Source of the DNA: Escherichia coli
Lineage (GTDB): Bacteria; Pseudomonadota; Gammaproteobacteria; Enterobacterales; Enterobacteriaceae
NCBI RefSeq assembly: GCF_044647545.1
Contig: NZ_CP172818.1
DNA length: 64,000 bases
Reading direction: 5' to 3' (one strand)
Under the pieces are notes generated by a model. The model worked only from the letters and a program-made list of their open reading frames with translations. It made no database searches and was not told the DNA's origin. This document shows positions 37,212 to 45,394 of the stretch, piece by piece. The position numbers were made by a program, and so were the translations under genes. Every line of letters starts with the position of its first letter. Positions within the stretch are counted from its first letter, which is position 1.

Positions 37212-38228
37212 ATGGGATATTTACATATTGATGGTAGAGGCATGAAGCCAAATGGAGGGAGCCGTCATAACCCTCTTGAAGCTGAAACAATAGCAGCATG
37301 GCTGGTGGCACATAAGGATGATATAGAGCGCCATTACGGGGAACCACTGTACAAAGTTGTTGGTGTTGTGACGCCATTTTCGGCGCAGGTTAATGCTATC
37401 AAAATGTCATTGCGTAAGCTGGAAATTAATGGCAAAGACGAGCAGGGTTTACTGACAGTGGGGACTGTGCACTCCTTGCAGGGGGCGGAAAGGGCGATTG
37501 TTCTCTTTTCTCCTGTCTACTCAAAACATGAAGATGGCAGGTTTCTTGATAGCAACAGCACTATCCTCAATGTTGCTGTCTCACGCGCTAAAGATAGTTT
37601 TCTGGTATTTGGCGATATGGACCTTATCGAGATGCAGCCCGCATTTTCGCCGCGAGGGTTATTGGCAAAATATCTCTTTTCTTCAGATAATAATGCGTTG
37701 CAATTTGAGTTTCAGAAACGACAGGATTTAATTTCCGCACATACACAAATTTCAACGCTGCATGGTGTGGAGCAGCATGATGAATTTTTGAACAAGACTC
37801 TTGCCGGAGCTCAAAAGAAAATAACGATTATTTCCCCTTGGTTATCCTGGCAAAAAGTGGAGCAAACGGGATTTCTGGCATCAATGGCTTTGGCCCGTTC
37901 CCGGGGCATTGATATTACCGTGGTGACGGATAAAAACTGCAATATAGCGCATGTCGATGATGATAAGCGTCAGGAGAAACAACATCTGCTGAATGATGCT
38001 GTTGAAAAGCTCAATAAGATGGGTATCGCTACGAAATTGGTTAATCGTGTTCACAGCAAAATTGTGATTGAGGATGAAGAACTGCTGTGTGTCGGATCTT
38101 TTAACTGGTTCAGTGCTACACGGGAAGATAAGTATCAACGATACGATACGTCTTTGGTGTACCGTGGTGAAGGCGTAAAAAATGAAATAAAGGCAATATA
38201 TGGTAGTCTGGATCAACGTCAGCTTTAA
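37212..38228 (+). CDS. yjhR: C-terminal fragment of an SF1 helicase fused to a PLD-type (HKD) nuclease domain
   Basis: 338-aa ORF with helicase C-terminal motifs ([34 protein letters not shown]) and a perfect HKD motif [18 protein letters not shown]; a helicase-like reading frame continues upstream in another frame (37036..37245), so this looks like a remnant of a larger gene. Confidence 0.75.
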
Positions 38229-38810
38229 ATGTGATGAGCCGTTCATGATACAGGAGTAGTAAAGGGCATATTTTACCAATGTTAAGGCGACTTTCCGTTT
38301 TATTGCGAGTCGCCTTTCCTGATTATAAATCTTATTGTTTACCTAATCATTTTCCTTTGCATAATGCGCCTGGGATTAATGGCGGGTGCTTTTAGGAATG
38401 AAAGAAAATGCAAGCAATAATATAATAATGGCCTAATTTCTTTGAACATCATTAAGCATATCATCATCGTCTATTTGCCAGAATCCGTCGACTTATAATC
38501 GCCAGAACGGCATATCAGGACGGTGCTGCGAACGCTGTGGCCCAAAACGTTCCAGTAAACTGTGTAGATGTTCGTAGATTTCCGAGCCATAATCGAAAAG
38601 GCGCGGATGTCTATTAAGGCATCCGGCTAATCTGTAAGCAATAACAACGGTTTATGCGGTGCGCGTTTTTCACCCTTGTGCCAGATTATTATATTGGCAA
38701 TTGCCTGCTGTTCGAGCCCGCAAGTGAAGAGATATTACCTTGATCTCATTTGTTTTTTGTTGTCTACTCTGAGAACGAACAAGGACATCCCCCATGAATA
38801 AACTCCCCGC

Positions 38811-39791
38811 TCACCTTTCGCGCCAAAACTGCAAAATTGCTTCTACAAACCTGTCAGAAATAATCCCTCGACGGGCTGCCGCGCTGAAATGACTGCTTCG
38901 CAGTGCCGTCGTCCAGTTCTCCGGTGACCGGTACGCTGAACCGTAATATCCCGTGCTTAAATCGTCCGGATCTTCATCAGGCGCGTTCGTCAGTCCTCTT
39001 GCACCTTGTTGCTGGAAGTCGACGAAAATAATATTGGCTAGAACATTATTTTGATAATTGCCATAAATAGCTTCATACGCATGAGGGAAATTTTCTTTCC
39101 AGTACCAGGTGGTATCGCCGCAAAACCACGGCGCGTCAGTAATTTTATTAAGCTGAGAATGGTATTGTTTTAGATCCCTACGAAAGGCGTCAACCATATG
39201 ATTAAAGTGTTGAGGGTGTGACGCGTAGTCACTGGTCATTAAGTCAAATTCGCCTTGCATCCAGCATACGCCGAGGAATTTGTTCTGCGGATTTTTTGCC
39301 AGTGCGGCTCGCGTTCTGCTGACTAAATCCTGGTATAGCGGAGTATCCGTTCCCCAACGACAAGCATCATGGCTGGCTCCGTGCCGTTCTGAATATGTCC
39401 CTTCGCTGCCCGCGGTAAAAGCCGATCCGCCACGGCAACACGGAACGATGAGAACCCCTGCATTATCAGGAATAAAGGGCAGTAATTTCCGTGCTATATG
39501 TAGTGCCTGGCCAACGGTGCCGTACTGTGTTTGATGATTCGTTGCCAGAGGATGGTGATAACCCTGCATATCCTGAACATCGTGTGGGCAGTGAGTCAGT
39601 GGAATAATGTCGTTAAAGTGACATGACGGGCCTCCGGGATGTGTATGCGCAAATCTCGCTAATTGTTTAATTCTGGGATGAGGCGCATCTTCCTTGTCCG
39701 GTAATGGTAGTCCTTCGCCATACGCCATGGCATTAGACTGACCAGCAACGGTAAGAACATAGTAATAATCGGGCGATATTATTGCGTTCAT
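38811..39791 (-). CDS. nanS: 9-O-acetyl-N-acetylneuraminate esterase
   Basis: 326-aa product MNAIISPDYYYVLTVAGQSNAMAYGEGLPLPD...; start trimmed from ORF track 39818. Confidence 0.9.
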   Translation of the reverse strand: MNAIISPDYYYVLTVAGQSNAMAYGEGLPLPDKEDAPHPRIKQLARFAHTHPGGPSCHFNDIIPLTHCPHDVQDMQGYHHPLATNHQTQYGTVGQALHIARKLLPFIPDNAGVLIVPCCRGGSAFTAGSEGTYSERHGASHDACRWGTDTPLYQDLVSRTRAALAKNPQNKFLGVCWMQGEFDLMTSDYASHPQHFNHMVDAFRRDLKQYHSQLNKITDAPWFCGDTTWYWKENFPHAYEAIYGNYQNNVLANIIFVDFQQQGARGLTNAPDEDPDDLSTGYYGSAYRSPENWTTALRSSHFSAAARRGIISDRFVEAILQFWRER

Positions 39792-39855
39792 ATAATTTTC
39801 GCGTAATACAAATGACAAATTGATAGCAAGGCCCCTTTACCGGGGCCCTGAAGCG

Positions 39856-40962
39856 TTAGTTTTGTACTGTGACTTTATTATCCTTCACAGAAATTAAAAC
39901 TGAATCCGTCACCGCTTTGCCGCCTGCAGTTTCACCGCCAATAATTAATAAACTATTATTCCAGGGCAATGATACTCCGTAGGCCCGACCTTGCGATAAT
40001 TCGCCCGATTTATCCCATTTCCCGTTATGCCAAAGATGAATATCAGCGCTATATGATTTTTTCAGGCCTTCATGCGCATAGTTCTTACCGTTCTGGTAAT
40101 TTTCTCGTGAACCTTTGAATCCGGCCCCTCCGGCAAATATAAGTGAGTCATTGCTCATGCCTGCAAAACCGCCAGCGACGCCATCTGGTGATGCGACGGG
40201 AGCAAGCTTATTCCATTTTAAATTATTACCGGTGAAATCAAGTTCAAATACGGCATCCGTTCGCAATCCTGGTTTGGCTTCGCCATTAATAAGCCAGGTT
40301 TTATCACCTTTATTCACAACCGCCGCACCAGCCGTTCCGTACCAGGGAGATTCGCCAGCGTAACTCCATTGCTGTGTAGAGGGATCAAAAGACAACAGAA
40401 ACTTATTGAAGAAATAATCTTCTGCTTTTTTGTCAAAATAGTGGGCGTTGATTTTATCTATAGTGGTTGAATCTTTTCCAGCTTCGTTGAGATCTTCAAA
40501 ATAGCCATTGAAGATATTCTGGTTAACACCGCCAGTAACATAAGCCTTGCCGTTGTGTACAAAAGTCACATGGCCCGCCATGCCCATCGGCGCGTGCGAC
40601 ATCAATTTAACCCAGCTATTGGTTTTGGGGTTGTATTTGTGTACGTCATTAAATACCTGAGTCAAGCCCTCGCTGTTTTTGCCAATGCCGCCAAACACAT
40701 ACAGATTACCATCAATAAATGCAGAGGTTGCTTGATCTCTCGGTCCACCAGGGAATGCAGCTAACGCTGTCCATTTTTTATCTTTGGCCTGTGTATCCAG
40801 CTTGTACCATGCTGTACCTGCGCTACCTAAACCAATGTAGACAGTGTCGTTATCAATTGCTCCGGTACCACTTTTAAATGGCACAGGAGTTTCCGGTAAT
40901 ACAGACGCGTTTGCGGCAAATGAAGCCATTATGATAGCAAGCGCCGTTATTGTTTTATTCAT
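39856..40962 (-). CDS. nanM: N-acetylneuraminate mutarotase (Kelch-repeat beta-propeller, periplasmic)
   Basis: 368-aa product MNKTITALAIIMASFAANASVLPETPVPFKSGTGAIDNDTVYIGLGSAG... with signal peptide; start trimmed from 41070. Confidence 0.9.
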   Translation of the reverse strand: MNKTITALAIIMASFAANASVLPETPVPFKSGTGAIDNDTVYIGLGSAGTAWYKLDTQAKDKKWTALAAFPGGPRDQATSAFIDGNLYVFGGIGKNSEGLTQVFNDVHKYNPKTNSWVKLMSHAPMGMAGHVTFVHNGKAYVTGGVNQNIFNGYFEDLNEAGKDSTTIDKINAHYFDKKAEDYFFNKFLLSFDPSTQQWSYAGESPWYGTAGAAVVNKGDKTWLINGEAKPGLRTDAVFELDFTGNNLKWNKLAPVASPDGVAGGFAGMSNDSLIFAGGAGFKGSRENYQNGKNYAHEGLKKSYSADIHLWHNGKWDKSGELSQGRAYGVSLPWNNSLLIIGGETAGGKAVTDSVLISVKDNKVTVQN

Positions 40963-40981
40963 TGTGACTGTCTCCTGTCTA

Positions 40982-41698
40982 CTACAGTTTAAATGATACA
41001 CCAATGCGATAACTGTTTTCCGATAAATTATCTCTGCCGTTGTAAACACCCTGACGGTCAAGGTAGTCATATTCTATGTATGGCGTAATATCGGGCGTCA
41101 TATGGTATTGTAGAACAAATGCATTTTCCGTCGCCCATTTCTTATGGTTTGCATAGCGATAATCGTTCTGTTTGCTGTATAGCGTCGTTTGCCATGCGAA
41201 GGTGAAATCACTATTAATATGGTAAGTGACATATCCATCCCAACGATGAACGTTATCACGAGACATATCACCGGATAAGTCTTGTTGTCGGTAAGCTTTC
41301 CAGTCGTAACGATAGCGAATGCCAAAATTAAGATCTTTTGTCGCGTCCCAGGACAGTTTTACGTAGGGTCCGTAGCGGGTGCCGTTGCTGCTAAAATGCG
41401 TTAACATTCCCGGGCGCACCGTCCATTGATCATCAAGTTTAATCGCGTAATTAACTTCAACCTGAACATCATTGAGTGCGGCATTTTCCTTTTTATTATC
41501 ATGAATGGTATTCCAGGTATTACTTTCCATGCTTGCCCACCATCCATTTTGCCATCCCTCACTGACTTTGAGTCGAGTCTCATAGGCATGGCTTCCGCTA
41601 CGATATCCACCACGTACGTCCAGTGTCGCAGCCTGAGAAATTAATGGTGACGAAAAGCACAGTAATAATACGCCAGAAAGTATTTTAGCCTTTTTCAT
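40982..41698 (-). CDS. nanC: N-acetylneuraminic acid outer-membrane channel (KdgM family)
   Basis: 238-aa product MKKAKILSGVLLLCFSSPLISQAATLDVRGGYRSGSHAYETRLKVSEGW... ending in an aromatic beta-barrel C-terminus. Confidence 0.9.
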   Translation of the reverse strand: MKKAKILSGVLLLCFSSPLISQAATLDVRGGYRSGSHAYETRLKVSEGWQNGWWASMESNTWNTIHDNKKENAALNDVQVEVNYAIKLDDQWTVRPGMLTHFSSNGTRYGPYVKLSWDATKDLNFGIRYRYDWKAYRQQDLSGDMSRDNVHRWDGYVTYHINSDFTFAWQTTLYSKQNDYRYANHKKWATENAFVLQYHMTPDITPYIEYDYLDRQGVYNGRDNLSENSYRIGVSFKL

Positions 41699-42114
41699 AA
41701 ATTTCACTCATTTGTAGGATACAGAAAGCAATACAAAGCCCGCATAAACAATTAGCATTTATGTTGTGTAATATTTTTTGCCAGGCTTATAGTGTCTTTG
41801 GCAATGGGTAGCTTATTTTATATTTTTTGTATAAGGTCTCCTGTGAAAATTCTCTTTTCACATTATTTAAATAAACAGAGAGCCAGATTAAATACCTGAG
41901 TATAAAATCTCTTCTGATGTTTAATTGATTTGAATGTTCGTAAGCTATATCACTTACTCAATCCATTTTACCCAGAGTCATAAAATAGAGTGTTTGTTGA
42001 TCTCATTTTCATATTCCTTTCAGACTGAAGTGCGTTTTCATCACCCGATGAGAAAGAACTGAAGTGATGTTTGCCATAGATTGCAAGATGCCCTGTCTCA
42101 TTGTCTATCGCGGT

Positions 42115-42136
42115 GCACCTTTATACCTGTTATACC
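42115..42136 (-). promoter_or_regulatory. putative NanR operator (GGTATA repeats) upstream of nanC
   Basis: Minus strand reads gatctggtataacaggtataaaggtgcac, nearly identical to the nanX-upstream module at 5811-5840. Confidence 0.55.
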
Positions 42137-42887
42137 AGATCAAAAATCACGCAATCCATACAACAAAACCAGATTTGCAATTCGTGTCACAAAATATGTC
42201 GATCTTTTTCTAAGAGGAAGATGCCATGTGAAGCCAGACGAACACTTGCGGTGGTCTTCAAAAACTAAAGATATTCTTTTAAATATCTGTTTTATAAATA
42301 ATTTATTTAGAGTCTAAATAAGGGAAGCTTTGTAAGCTAACTCAGTGAGCTTGGTGAAAATAAGTGTTTACCCGCCATCAGGCTTAGCATAATTCTCATC
42401 ATGAAATATGTTTCCTGGTTTGTGGCTTGTAACTGGTCACTCCTGAAGCCGATCTGGAGAGGCTTGTTGATGTTGGTGTTTTCAGGGTGATGCCTCACTT
42501 AGTTTGTTTGCCGTATCGCCCGGCGAACAGCTGTGATTGAGGAAGGTTTAAGTCGTAGTGACCAAAGCCATATTTACCAACGGATGCAGATGAAAAAATC
42601 GTTTCCTGCTTTCCCCCATATCTCCATGATAAAAAGGAATGTAACAATCTCATGGTCTAAACTGACGAACCAGCCAGGAATAATCGCTAGGGACCTAAGA
42701 ATTAGCATGATAATAGCCACTAAGAAATTACTGCGTTCCATGAAATAGCCATTTTGTGGCAAATGGAGTTGACTAATAATGTCATATGTGAGACGGCTAG
42801 TTGAGCGAATATTAAATTTTGCTGAATTTTTTATGTTGATTTTACTTGTTACAGAACATATCACATGATATATAGATAATAAGAGAA

Positions 42888-43550
42888 GACAGCGCCGGGG
42901 GCCCGCGGCGCCCGCTCCCAGCGCGGCGGGGGCGGGGGGGGGATATAAGGGAGCCTCGTCCCACACCAGCAAAGGGGACGCGGCTCGAGCCCAGCGGGAA
43001 GGGGCGCGGGGAACGTCCGAAGGCGTCATACGCGTAAAACAGCCAGCGCGCGCGATGCGCACATCCCACGTTCGTCCATTCCGCGCAGGACGTGACGACG
43101 CCGGCGTTGGCGGGTTACCGCGCGGCGGGCTGCGGGGCGTTGAGGAACGCCCATAATGGCGGGCGTGCGGCTCCAACGTTCGGCTCTGTTTGGGCTGGTG
43201 CGTACCGGGTTGAGAAGCGGGTAAGTGAACGCGTTGCCGTTTTACGGCAGTGAGAGCGAGTAGCGCCCGCGCGCGGGGGGGGCGGCGGGGCGCGGCCGGT
43301 GTCCCCGGCGCGGCGCGGGTTCGTGGAGGCCACGCGCCAGTGCGGGAGTGGGCCCGGCATGCGAACGGCCGCACTGGGGGCATTCAATGACGACCTTCTC
43401 GGTTCGTGGTGGAGAGGGGGGGACGGTGGGCAGGGCGGCGGGGCGCGGCCCGGCGGGGCCGCGCACCGGGGGGGGGGGGGGGGGGGGGGGGGCGCACCAC
43501 CCCGCGTGCTGCGGGGCAGCGGTGGGCGGCCCCTCTCTCGGGAACAGTTG
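42888..43550. other. G/C-rich low-complexity block with homopolymer runs; probable artefact, garbled IS1-like interior
   Basis: Starts at the expected fimB start region and ends inside fimH; contains a G run of about 25 nt and stretches such as gtcatacgcgtaaaacagccagcgc...tgcgtaccgggttgagaagcgggtaagtgaacgcgttgccgttttacggcagtgagagc that resemble IS1 interior as I recall it. Confidence 0.6.
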
Positions 43551-43715
43551 ATGCGCAACGGTACGATTATTCCAGCGAATAACACGGTATCGTTAGGAGC
43601 AGTAGGGACTTCGGCGGTAAGTCTGGGATTAACGGCAAATTACGCACGTACCGGAGGGCAGGTGACTGCAGGGAATGTGCAATCGATTATTGGCGTGACT
43701 TTTGTTTATCAATAA
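43551..43715 (+). pseudogene. fimH: 3' fragment of the type 1 fimbrial adhesin gene (last ~54 codons)
   Basis: Frame reads ...RNGTIIPANNTVSLGAVGTSAVSLGLTANYARTGGQVTAGNVQSIIGVTFVYQ*, which I recognise as the FimH C-terminus; there is no upstream fim gene body. Confidence 0.8.
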
Positions 43716-43786
43716 AGAAATCACAGGGCATTGCTAATGCAGGTACGCAATATTACCTGAAGCTAAAAACCTGCACGTTAGCCCTT

Positions 43787-43823
43787 TGTAGGCCAGATAA
43801 GACGCGTCAGCGTCGCATCTGGC
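43787..43823. repeat. REP (repetitive extragenic palindromic) element
   Basis: gtaggccagataagacgcgtcagcgtcgcatctggc matches the REP consensus family, between fimH' and gntP. Confidence 0.7.
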
Positions 43824-43887
43824 ATAAACAAAGCGCACTTTGCGACAATCCGAACAGAGCCCGCCATTGGCAGGCTCTGGTGTTCTT

Positions 43888-45231
43888 TTACGCTACCATG
43901 CTAATAATCAACACAATAATCAGCCCAACCACGGAGTTGACCAGCTCCAGCAGTCCCCAGGTTTTCAACGTGTCTTTTACCGACAGGTCAAAGTAACCTT
44001 TGAACAGCCAGAATGAGGCATCATTAATGTGGGTGAGGGTGTTGGAACCCGCAGCCGTCGCCAGCACCAGCAGCGCCGGATTCACGCCAACCAGCTGACC
44101 GGTTGCTGGATCAAGGATTGCAGCACTGATAATCCCGGCGGCGGTCATCGCCGAAACGACACCCTGACCCGTCGCCAGACGAATTAGCACAGTGATCAGC
44201 CATGCCATAATGTAGGGCGAGATATTGCCGTGGGACATCAACATGCCGATGGTGTCGCCAATGCCGGTGTCGATGATAGTTTGCTTCAACACGCCACCCG
44301 CACCGATGATCAGAATCACCATTGCAATGCTTTTCACCGCACTTTCAAAAGCGTTCATCACCCACTGCATGTCATGACCACGTGCGGTGCCAAAGAGTAC
44401 GAATGCAACCACCATCGCAATAAACATTGCAATCGGCGAGGAACCGATAAAGTTAACCACTTCCCAGGCAGGGGTATCTTTTACCAGCCAGATATTGGCG
44501 ATGGTGGTGGAGATCATAATGATCGCCGGGATCAGCGGCACCAGAATCGAAACGCCGAAAGAGGGCAGATTGTTCATATCTACCGGTTGATCTGCTTTCA
44601 GGAATGATGGCGTTGGGCGCTCAAGATTGCCGAGGAACTTCGGCAGGATCAGACCTGCGCAGATTACACTTGGGATCGTCACCAGTACGCCATAGATATA
44701 AACCATCCCCATATCTGCGCCATAAGCATTCACCAGCGCCACAGGACCCGGCTGCGGTGGGAACAGTGAATGTGCGGTAGTGGCAGCTGCTACTGCCGGG
44801 ATCGCCAGTTTCAGGAACGGAATTTTAGCTTCGGCGGCAATGACAATAACCAGCGGCGCTAACATGATAAAGGCCACTTCATAGAACATCGCCAGACCAA
44901 AAATCAGGCCGATGATAATCACCGACAGCTGTACATAGCGCAGACCGAGACGCGCCAGCAGCGTATGTGCTATCTGGTGAGCCGCGCCGGAGTCGACCAT
45001 CAATTTACCGATGACCGCACCGAACACCACGATGATAGCCAGTTCCCCCAGCGTGTTGCCGAAGCCCGCTTTCATGGTGTGCAGCAGCGACATCAAATCC
45101 ATGCCCGCCAGCATCCCGACGGACAGCGCCGCCACCAACAAAGCCACCATTGAATTGATTTTGAACTTCAAATTCAGTACCAGCATCAGACCAATGCCGA
45201 ATACCACCCAGAGAATGTTAAGCACATGCAT
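43888..45231 (-). CDS. gntP: high-affinity gluconate permease (GntP family)
   Basis: 447-aa product [43 protein letters not shown]... Confidence 0.9.
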
Positions 45232-45394
45232 AACGTTTTACCTTACCTGGTTGAACCGTTGTTATTTTGGGCGACATGTTATGTAAATTGGTCAACCATT
45301 GTTGCGATGAATGTCACATCCTCTGATCAATAACCATCGATTACCCTTTGCTGCAATTTGCAGCAACAACCAGGAGAGTGAAATTCTTGTGATG

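Follow-up and report, generated by a model that had tools for sequence, protein, structure and literature searches.

The window, by which we mean the whole 64 kb stretch of Escherichia coli DNA analysed here, carries a G-rich block of 665 bp between nanC and the end of fimH. This block is very probably not real DNA; on comparison with related genomes, it is best read as a corrupted rendering of an ordinary IS1A element of ~768 bp at a known deletion of the fim operon (Table 1). The first-pass annotation had proposed a real fim::IS1 deletion beneath corrupted sequence, and that reading is upheld by flanks identical to those of E. coli 042, by 307 relatives with the same arrangement, by a garbled IS1 that is still colinear with the IS1A of those relatives, and by two sibling blocks elsewhere in the window. 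In the living strain, an IS1A in reverse orientation most likely has the nanC-fimB intergenic region on one side and fimH codon 245 on the other. An IS1-linked deletion of ~8.85 kb would have removed fimB, fimE, fimS, fimA-fimG and most of fimH, and the strain would then be non-fimbriate for type 1 fimbriae. The corruption itself would have arisen in sequencing, assembly, gap-filling or later processing. The fim locus beneath the block is an ordinary, already published IS1-linked deletion and involves no new biology.

Table 1. The G-rich block, its parts, its neighbours and the elements compared with it (window positions; reference positions are those of the 776-bp interval of E. coli 042)
Feature	Position	Strand	Remarks
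Sibling block 1	2213..2815	-	603 bp, 78% GC, C-rich on the + strand
Intact IS1, IS1F type	20669..21436	+	both inverted repeats present, one mismatch each to the IS1A consensus
nanC (N-acetylneuraminic acid outer membrane channel)	40982..41698	-	intact left neighbour; coordinates transferred from the colinear annotated relatives L001 (042) and L007
nanC-fimB intergenic remnant	41699..42879	.	matches 042 to 42879, 9 bp before the true IS1 junction
G-rich block (block 2), very probably corrupted	42880..43544	-	665 bp, in place of 9 bp of flank and a reverse-oriented IS1A of ~768 bp; no inverted repeats, no InsA/InsB frames
Left part of block	42880..43012	-	133 bp for about the first 326 reference positions (compressed), colinear
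Core of block, best preserved	43016..43265	-	reference 327-638, z = 39.7
Second degraded copy	43321..43420	-	reference 485-586, already present in the core; breaks colinearity; z = 11.2
G homopolymer	43468..43492	+	25 bases
fimH remnant	43545..43715	+	171 bp, codons 245-300 and stop; without its own start codon or promoter
gntP (gluconate permease)	44000..45343	-	intact right neighbour; coordinates transferred from L001; flank identity
Sibling block 3	62382..~63262	+	~880 bp (881), 67% G; G runs of 116, 38, 22 and 17

The fim locus in relatives and in the window

Extension of exact matches against E. coli 042 showed that the window is base-for-base identical to this strain as far as 42879 and from 43545 onwards. 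In 042, nanC is followed by a minus-strand IS1A, a 171-bp partial gene and gntP, and the 776 bp between the two matching points consist of 9 bp of unique flank (GATTAGTTG) and a clean IS1A (GGTAATGACTCC ... GGCAGCATCACC). The block had been placed at 42888-43550 in the first-pass annotation; its presence was correctly recognised, whilst its limits are moved by the comparison with 042 to 42880-43544, a length of 665 bp.

A megablast search of 5,426 complete RefSeq E. coli genomes, with 41900-44500 as the query, showed that many strains (042, ST648, FORC_031, TOK-001 and others) have the two flanks, at 99.9% identity, ~775 bp apart with an annotated IS1A transposase between them. To count the arrangement, the 042 IS1, extended by 400 bp into either flank, was used as the query at a coverage of at least 80%, which can be reached only if both junctions are present. 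The full arrangement (nanC upstream region, IS1A, fimH remnant and gntP) was found in 307 of the 5,426 genomes (~5.7%). Since these 307 relatives have a clean IS1, a clean IS1 is the expected true content of the locus and, extrapolating from the relatives to this strain, we infer that the true underlying sequence would be a clean IS1A. The configuration has also been described in the literature, as a 171-bp partial fimH between gntP and nanC that is interrupted by an IS1-family element in EAEC, EAHEC, an ST648 strain and ETEC 90-9281 (PMC8281228).

The corresponding interval of K-12 contains fimB, fimE, fimA, fimI, fimC, fimD, fimF, fimG and most of fimH, so that the fimB, fimE and fimA through fimG expected there from the outset are all present in the K-12 record. 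Relative to K-12, ~8.85 kb is absent from the window; the left breakpoint precedes fimB by 264 bp, and the right one falls at fimH codon 244/245. The earlier figure of ~9 kb is thereby slightly refined. The fimS switch, which is not annotated in the K-12 record, lies between fimE and fimA and by position belongs to the missing interval. The other K-12 Fim proteins had no match anywhere in the window by tblastn.

What is left of fimH can be translated from 43545 to 43715 without interruption as QLMRNGTIIPANNTVSLGAVGTSAVSLGLTANYARTGGQVTAGNVQSIIGVTFVYQ, followed by the stop. K-12 FimH matches the remnant with 98.2% identity over residues 245-300 (tblastn), and relatives annotate the same 171 bp as a partial fimbrial protein. 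The FimH C-terminus with its stop at 43715 had been identified in the first-pass annotation, although as ~54 codons; there are 56 codons and the stop.

An intact IS1 is ~768 bp long, has insA and insB' joined by a programmed -1 frameshift, and is flanked by an 8-9 bp target-site duplication. The clean IS1 of 042 has no such duplication, the sequences being GATTAGTTG on its left and CAGTTGATG on its right (L001, 3981-3989 and 4757-4765); the window's own left flank is destroyed. Judged from the 042 junctions, the lack of a duplication would fit an IS1 that made an adjacent deletion, or two IS1 copies that recombined, as opposed to a simple insertion.

The window agrees with the 042-type allele in its right breakpoint, which is identical (fimH codon 245, at 43545), in the 171-bp remnant adjoining gntP and in the neighbours nanC and gntP. 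The orientation of the IS1 (antisense to fimH), its colinearity and its IS1A subtype are consistent with that allele, in an element that is unreadable as given. The left flank is the same until 9 bp before the breakpoint and is likewise consistent with it; those 9 bp are lost within the block, which hides the junction from direct reading. However, where the 042-type allele has a clean IS1A in 776 bp, the window has 665 bp at 75% GC, with no inverted repeats and no transposase frames. We attribute this difference to data corruption and not to biology.

Composition and coding content of the block

The block has a GC content of 74.6% (A 13.7%, C 29.0%, G 45.6%, T 11.7%), compared with 51% for the whole window, and a G/C skew of +0.22. 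The fraction of distinct 6-mers was 0.71, whereas random 650-bp stretches of the same window averaged 0.89 and never fell below 0.79; both values bear out the initial description of the block as GC-rich and of low complexity. The G runs that it contains measure 9, 8 and 25 bases, and the longest, which had been put at ~25 nt, is exactly 25 (43468-43492). Across the 64 kb, every run of eight or more G or C falls inside this block or one of its two siblings.

All open reading frames within the block encode low-complexity strings of Pro, Gly, Arg and Ala without real coding signal, and comparison of all of them with the IS1 translation revealed no InsA- or InsB-like frame. When the block was sought in the 5,426 complete RefSeq E. 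coli genomes by sensitive blastn, the best coverage was 38%, with all matches being ordinary IS1, and an exact 63-mer from the core of the block was absent from 100,044 GTDB representative genomes and from the JGI metagenomes.

A GC content of 75% greatly exceeds the 51% of the E. coli background and could be taken as a sign of foreign high-GC DNA that was acquired horizontally and replaced the fim operon. We assign this a negligible probability: the frames are low-complexity strings and the sequence as a whole is of low complexity, the 63-mer has no counterpart in the collections above, and the 250 bp that survive best can be recognised without doubt as IS1A of E. coli (z = 39.7, see below). 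The colinear homology to IS1 effectively refutes an origin in foreign DNA.

Relationship of the block to IS1A

Global alignment showed the block to be colinear with the reverse-oriented IS1 of 042. To score individual segments, local alignments to the 776-bp 042 interval were compared with those of dinucleotide shuffles and expressed as z-scores. A resemblance to IS1 had been noted from the sequence itself, with an alignment proposed as the check; it lies far above chance, the core reaching z = 39.7 with the 042 interval and E = 5e-31 with IS1A by blastn.

The 250 window bases of the core comprise 237 matches, 8 substitutions and 5 insertions, and 67 of the 312 reference bases are deleted; the match rate counted over the window bases is 95%, and the loss counted over the reference is ~21%. 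The earlier description as "substitutions and compression" is thus right as to compression and not as to substitutions, since deletion dominates (67 deletions versus 8 substitutions, plus the 5 insertions). Retention per reference base was 95% for G, 80% for C, 61% for A and 62% for T, a bias in the deletion of A/T versus G/C that is significant (Fisher p = 3.5e-7). Each of the 5 insertions adds a G or C, and each of the 8 substitutions changes a base to G or C. In the core, AT-rich stretches of the reference such as TTTTTTAAGTGACGTAAAATCG are lost almost entirely.

On either side of the core the relationship is looser. The compressed left part has one recognisable stretch, in which 42937-42996 corresponds to reference 201-284 (z = 5.8), and the right 279 bp of the block stand for 138 reference positions and are expanded, the run of 25 G included. 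The second copy of reference 485-586 has the same orientation as the one in the core and is degraded separately. A segment duplicated in this way implies that the corrupting process emitted part of its template again.

By blastn, the block is nearer to IS1A, at 73.5% over the aligned part, than to the IS1F-type copy of the window, at 68.3%. It was the latter, at 20669..21436, with which the block had initially been compared; the homology is genuine, although the IS1 of the block is in the opposite orientation and closer to IS1A. With IS1A (768 bp) the block shares a colinear interior, reference ~201-638; unlike IS1A, it has no terminal inverted repeats, no insA/insB' frames and not the proper length, and it has in addition the duplicated segment and the run of 25 G. 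A search of the whole window for the IS1 inverted repeats (~23 bp, GGTGATGCTGCCAACTTACTGAT and GGTAATGACTCCAACTTATTGAT, with up to three mismatches) found them only at 20669-20691 and 21414-21436, with none in or near the block. The 9 bp of unique non-IS flank have gone along with both repeats. We attribute the failure of the block in these tests for IS1 (inverted repeats, length and frames) to corruption.

Quality of the surrounding sequence

The IS1F-type copy provides an internal control, being a normal IS1 that is correctly rendered in the same window. The rest of the sequence is similarly clean. Between 2900 and 27800 the window is 99.6% identical to K-12, with 88 substitutions and 4 single-base indels in 24.9 kb; these are clustered, and many kilobases have no difference at all. 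Between 27800 and 42879 it is 99.4% identical to CM2010-0578/1 and others, and relative to CM2010-0578/1 there are 90 substitutions and 5 indels in 15 kb, again clustered. A uniformly error-prone assembly was ruled out on these grounds, the differences outside the blocks being clustered substitutions with almost no indels. Given this clean background, the damage is local and does not reflect a general error rate.

Two sibling blocks

Two further blocks of the same style are found near the ends of the window. Block 1 contains only 4% T and has C runs of 11, 8 and 14 bases. It is situated between a truncated, leuX-adjacent tyrosine integrase and a pseudogene fragment of a phosphoethanolamine transferase; strain CB209, with flanks 100% identical to those of block 1, has merely 16 bp at this position (ATTTATTAGCACCTAT). 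Block 3 starts 27 bp into the 5' end of mdtM, with loss of the first 9 mdtM codons, and on the right it passes gradually into a degraded mrr 3' end, from which single T/A bases have dropped out, before the sequence is clean again. At this interval, relatives have either an IS1-family element with brnT/brnA (strain 300709) or the hsd-mrr restriction region.

Blocks 1 and 3 were compared, with shuffled controls, to IS1A, the IS1F-type copy, the IS4 and IS30 regions, the mdtM-IS1-brnTA region of strain 300709, and hsdR-mrr. For block 1, no homology to IS1, to anything else tested or to E. coli genomes was found. The sole comparison above z > 5 was that of 62701-63060 with IS1A (score 13.5, z = 5.6), the mrr-like right edge of block 3 being the other exception; we regard this match as low-complexity noise and not as an IS1A remnant. 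No sequence is shared among the three blocks, and a common template (a vector, an adapter or a single insert) was rejected. The excess of G is strand-specific, being on the plus strand in blocks 2 and 3 and on the minus strand in block 1. The sibling blocks, which the first-pass annotation had not noticed, are the strongest argument that block 2 is an artefact.

These observations also bear on whether block 2 could be a real relic, i.e. an IS1 that decayed in the cell through a localised process removing A/T and expanding G tracts. Colinearity with IS1 at the exact site of the relatives' IS1 would be expected of a relic, and dead IS copies do exist, as in the K-12 counterpart of the IS1F-type copy, which is annotated with an internal stop. 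We nevertheless consider a relic very unlikely. The flanks are 100% identical to those of relatives right up to the block, leaving no time for a divergence of ~25-40% in its interior. Mutation in E. coli is AT-biased, and the loss of A/T, the gain of G/C and the long G runs are in the opposite direction; we know of no repair or editing pathway that gives this pattern. The destruction extends to 9 bp of non-IS flank, and a degraded segment is duplicated. Two unrelated loci have blocks in the same style, on either strand and in one case with a run of 116 G, and nothing similar is present in any other genome among the 5,426. It is because the flanks are perfect to the last base, and because 9 non-IS bases were destroyed as well and like junk recurs at two further sites, that we do not regard the block as biology. 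For all three blocks to be genuine, the strain would need a process that strips A/T and expands G tracts to as many as 116 bases at mobile or variable loci, before a single mutation could arise in the flanks, and this we take to be extremely unlikely.

Technical origin of the block

As to how a clean IS1A could have been rendered in this form, our best guess, which we put forward tentatively, is that assembly breaks in repeats or variable DNA were filled with a spliced-in patch of low quality, made by a process that calls G too often on the read strand. The strand-specific excess of G suggests a process tied to the read strand. Block 2 lies at a multi-copy IS1A and block 3 at an interval in which relatives have an IS1-family element and a variable region, and the divergent IS1F-type copy, which is probably single-copy, was rendered correctly. 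These placements fit a patch at assembly breaks, without proving it.

Two-colour Illumina chemistry calls G where there is no signal and so produces poly-G read tails, an error of the substitution type (fastp; PMC6129281). The blocks resemble this artefact in their strand-specific G excess, their long G runs and their loss of T and A. However, the chemistry puts G in place of T or C in read tails of at most 150 bases, whereas in the core deletions outnumber substitutions (67 versus 8) and the blocks extend over 603-881 bp. With deletions dominant and blocks longer than short reads, simple poly-G tails were accepted as only part of the explanation. Read tails running outward from contig ends were ruled out for block 2, whose middle is rendered most faithfully and whose edges least so. 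None of the known error models of sequencing platforms fits the block fully.

The lack of fit to any platform would be accounted for if the corruption was made purely in silico, by gap filling or imputation with software or a generative model, or by damage done to the record, whether on purpose or by accident, and not by wet-lab read error. We regard this as possible but somewhat doubtful. The abrupt onset beside perfectly clean flanks is in its favour, as are the manner in which the template was skipped along, with GC-rich words kept and AT-rich stretches dropped whole, the re-emission of part of the template (43321-43420), the collapse into long single-base runs (of 116, 38 and 25 G), and the absence of the blocks from the public collections searched. 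In contrast, the graded edge of block 3, which passes into the mrr 3' end with single-base dropouts, is more like a noisy measurement of real DNA, and the excess of G depends on the strand, being on the opposite one in block 1, in keeping with an effect of read direction. The sequence of the block is equally compatible with a noisy patch and with purely computational infill or corruption.

Consequences for annotation

Taken at face value, the blocks would give rise to false 'high-GC islands', G-quadruplex tracts, open reading frames and a 'novel fim-locus insertion'. The source record is locally unreliable, and we recommend that 2213-2815, 42880-43544 and 62382-63262 be masked and that findings overlapping them be discarded. 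In particular, mdtM should not be scored as disrupted, since its first 9 codons fall within block 3. Block 2 would be remarkable if true, but the evidence is strongly opposed. The real biology at this locus is that type 1 fimbriae are lost by an IS1-linked deletion that is both published and common, at ~5.7% of complete E. coli genomes.

Ancestry of the window

The island at leuX is K-12-like (KpLE2 type) with full coverage relative to MG1655, and contains the IS4 insG, nanX/nanY, IS30, an ISEc52 fragment, fecIRABCDE, yjhU, yjhF, yjhG, yjhH and yjhI. The junction of nanC, IS1 and fimH remnant, unlike this K-12-like island, matches 042, ST648 and FORC_031-type strains, and in the middle of the window both CB209 and 042 carry an island of quite different content. 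The locus is accordingly a mosaic. A single genome colinear with the whole window was sought among the relatives and none was found, the nearest being 99.3-99.6% identical over long stretches.

The differences from relatives form clusters, with 43 in 3000-4999, 36 in 9000-11999 and none in 12000-19999, and further clusters in 20000-22000 and 38000-42879. They are mostly substitutions without G/C bias, and the majority fall within or close to IS fragments and in the nan region; they look more like patches left by natural recombination than like mild corruption. The IS1F-type copy adjoins fecI as in K-12, where its counterpart carries the internal stop mentioned above, and ~11 positions differ from the region of the K-12 copy. 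The sole tRNA gene in the window is the tRNA-Leu gene leuX (anticodon CAA, 1512-1596), the attachment site of the island, which begins with the truncated integrase.
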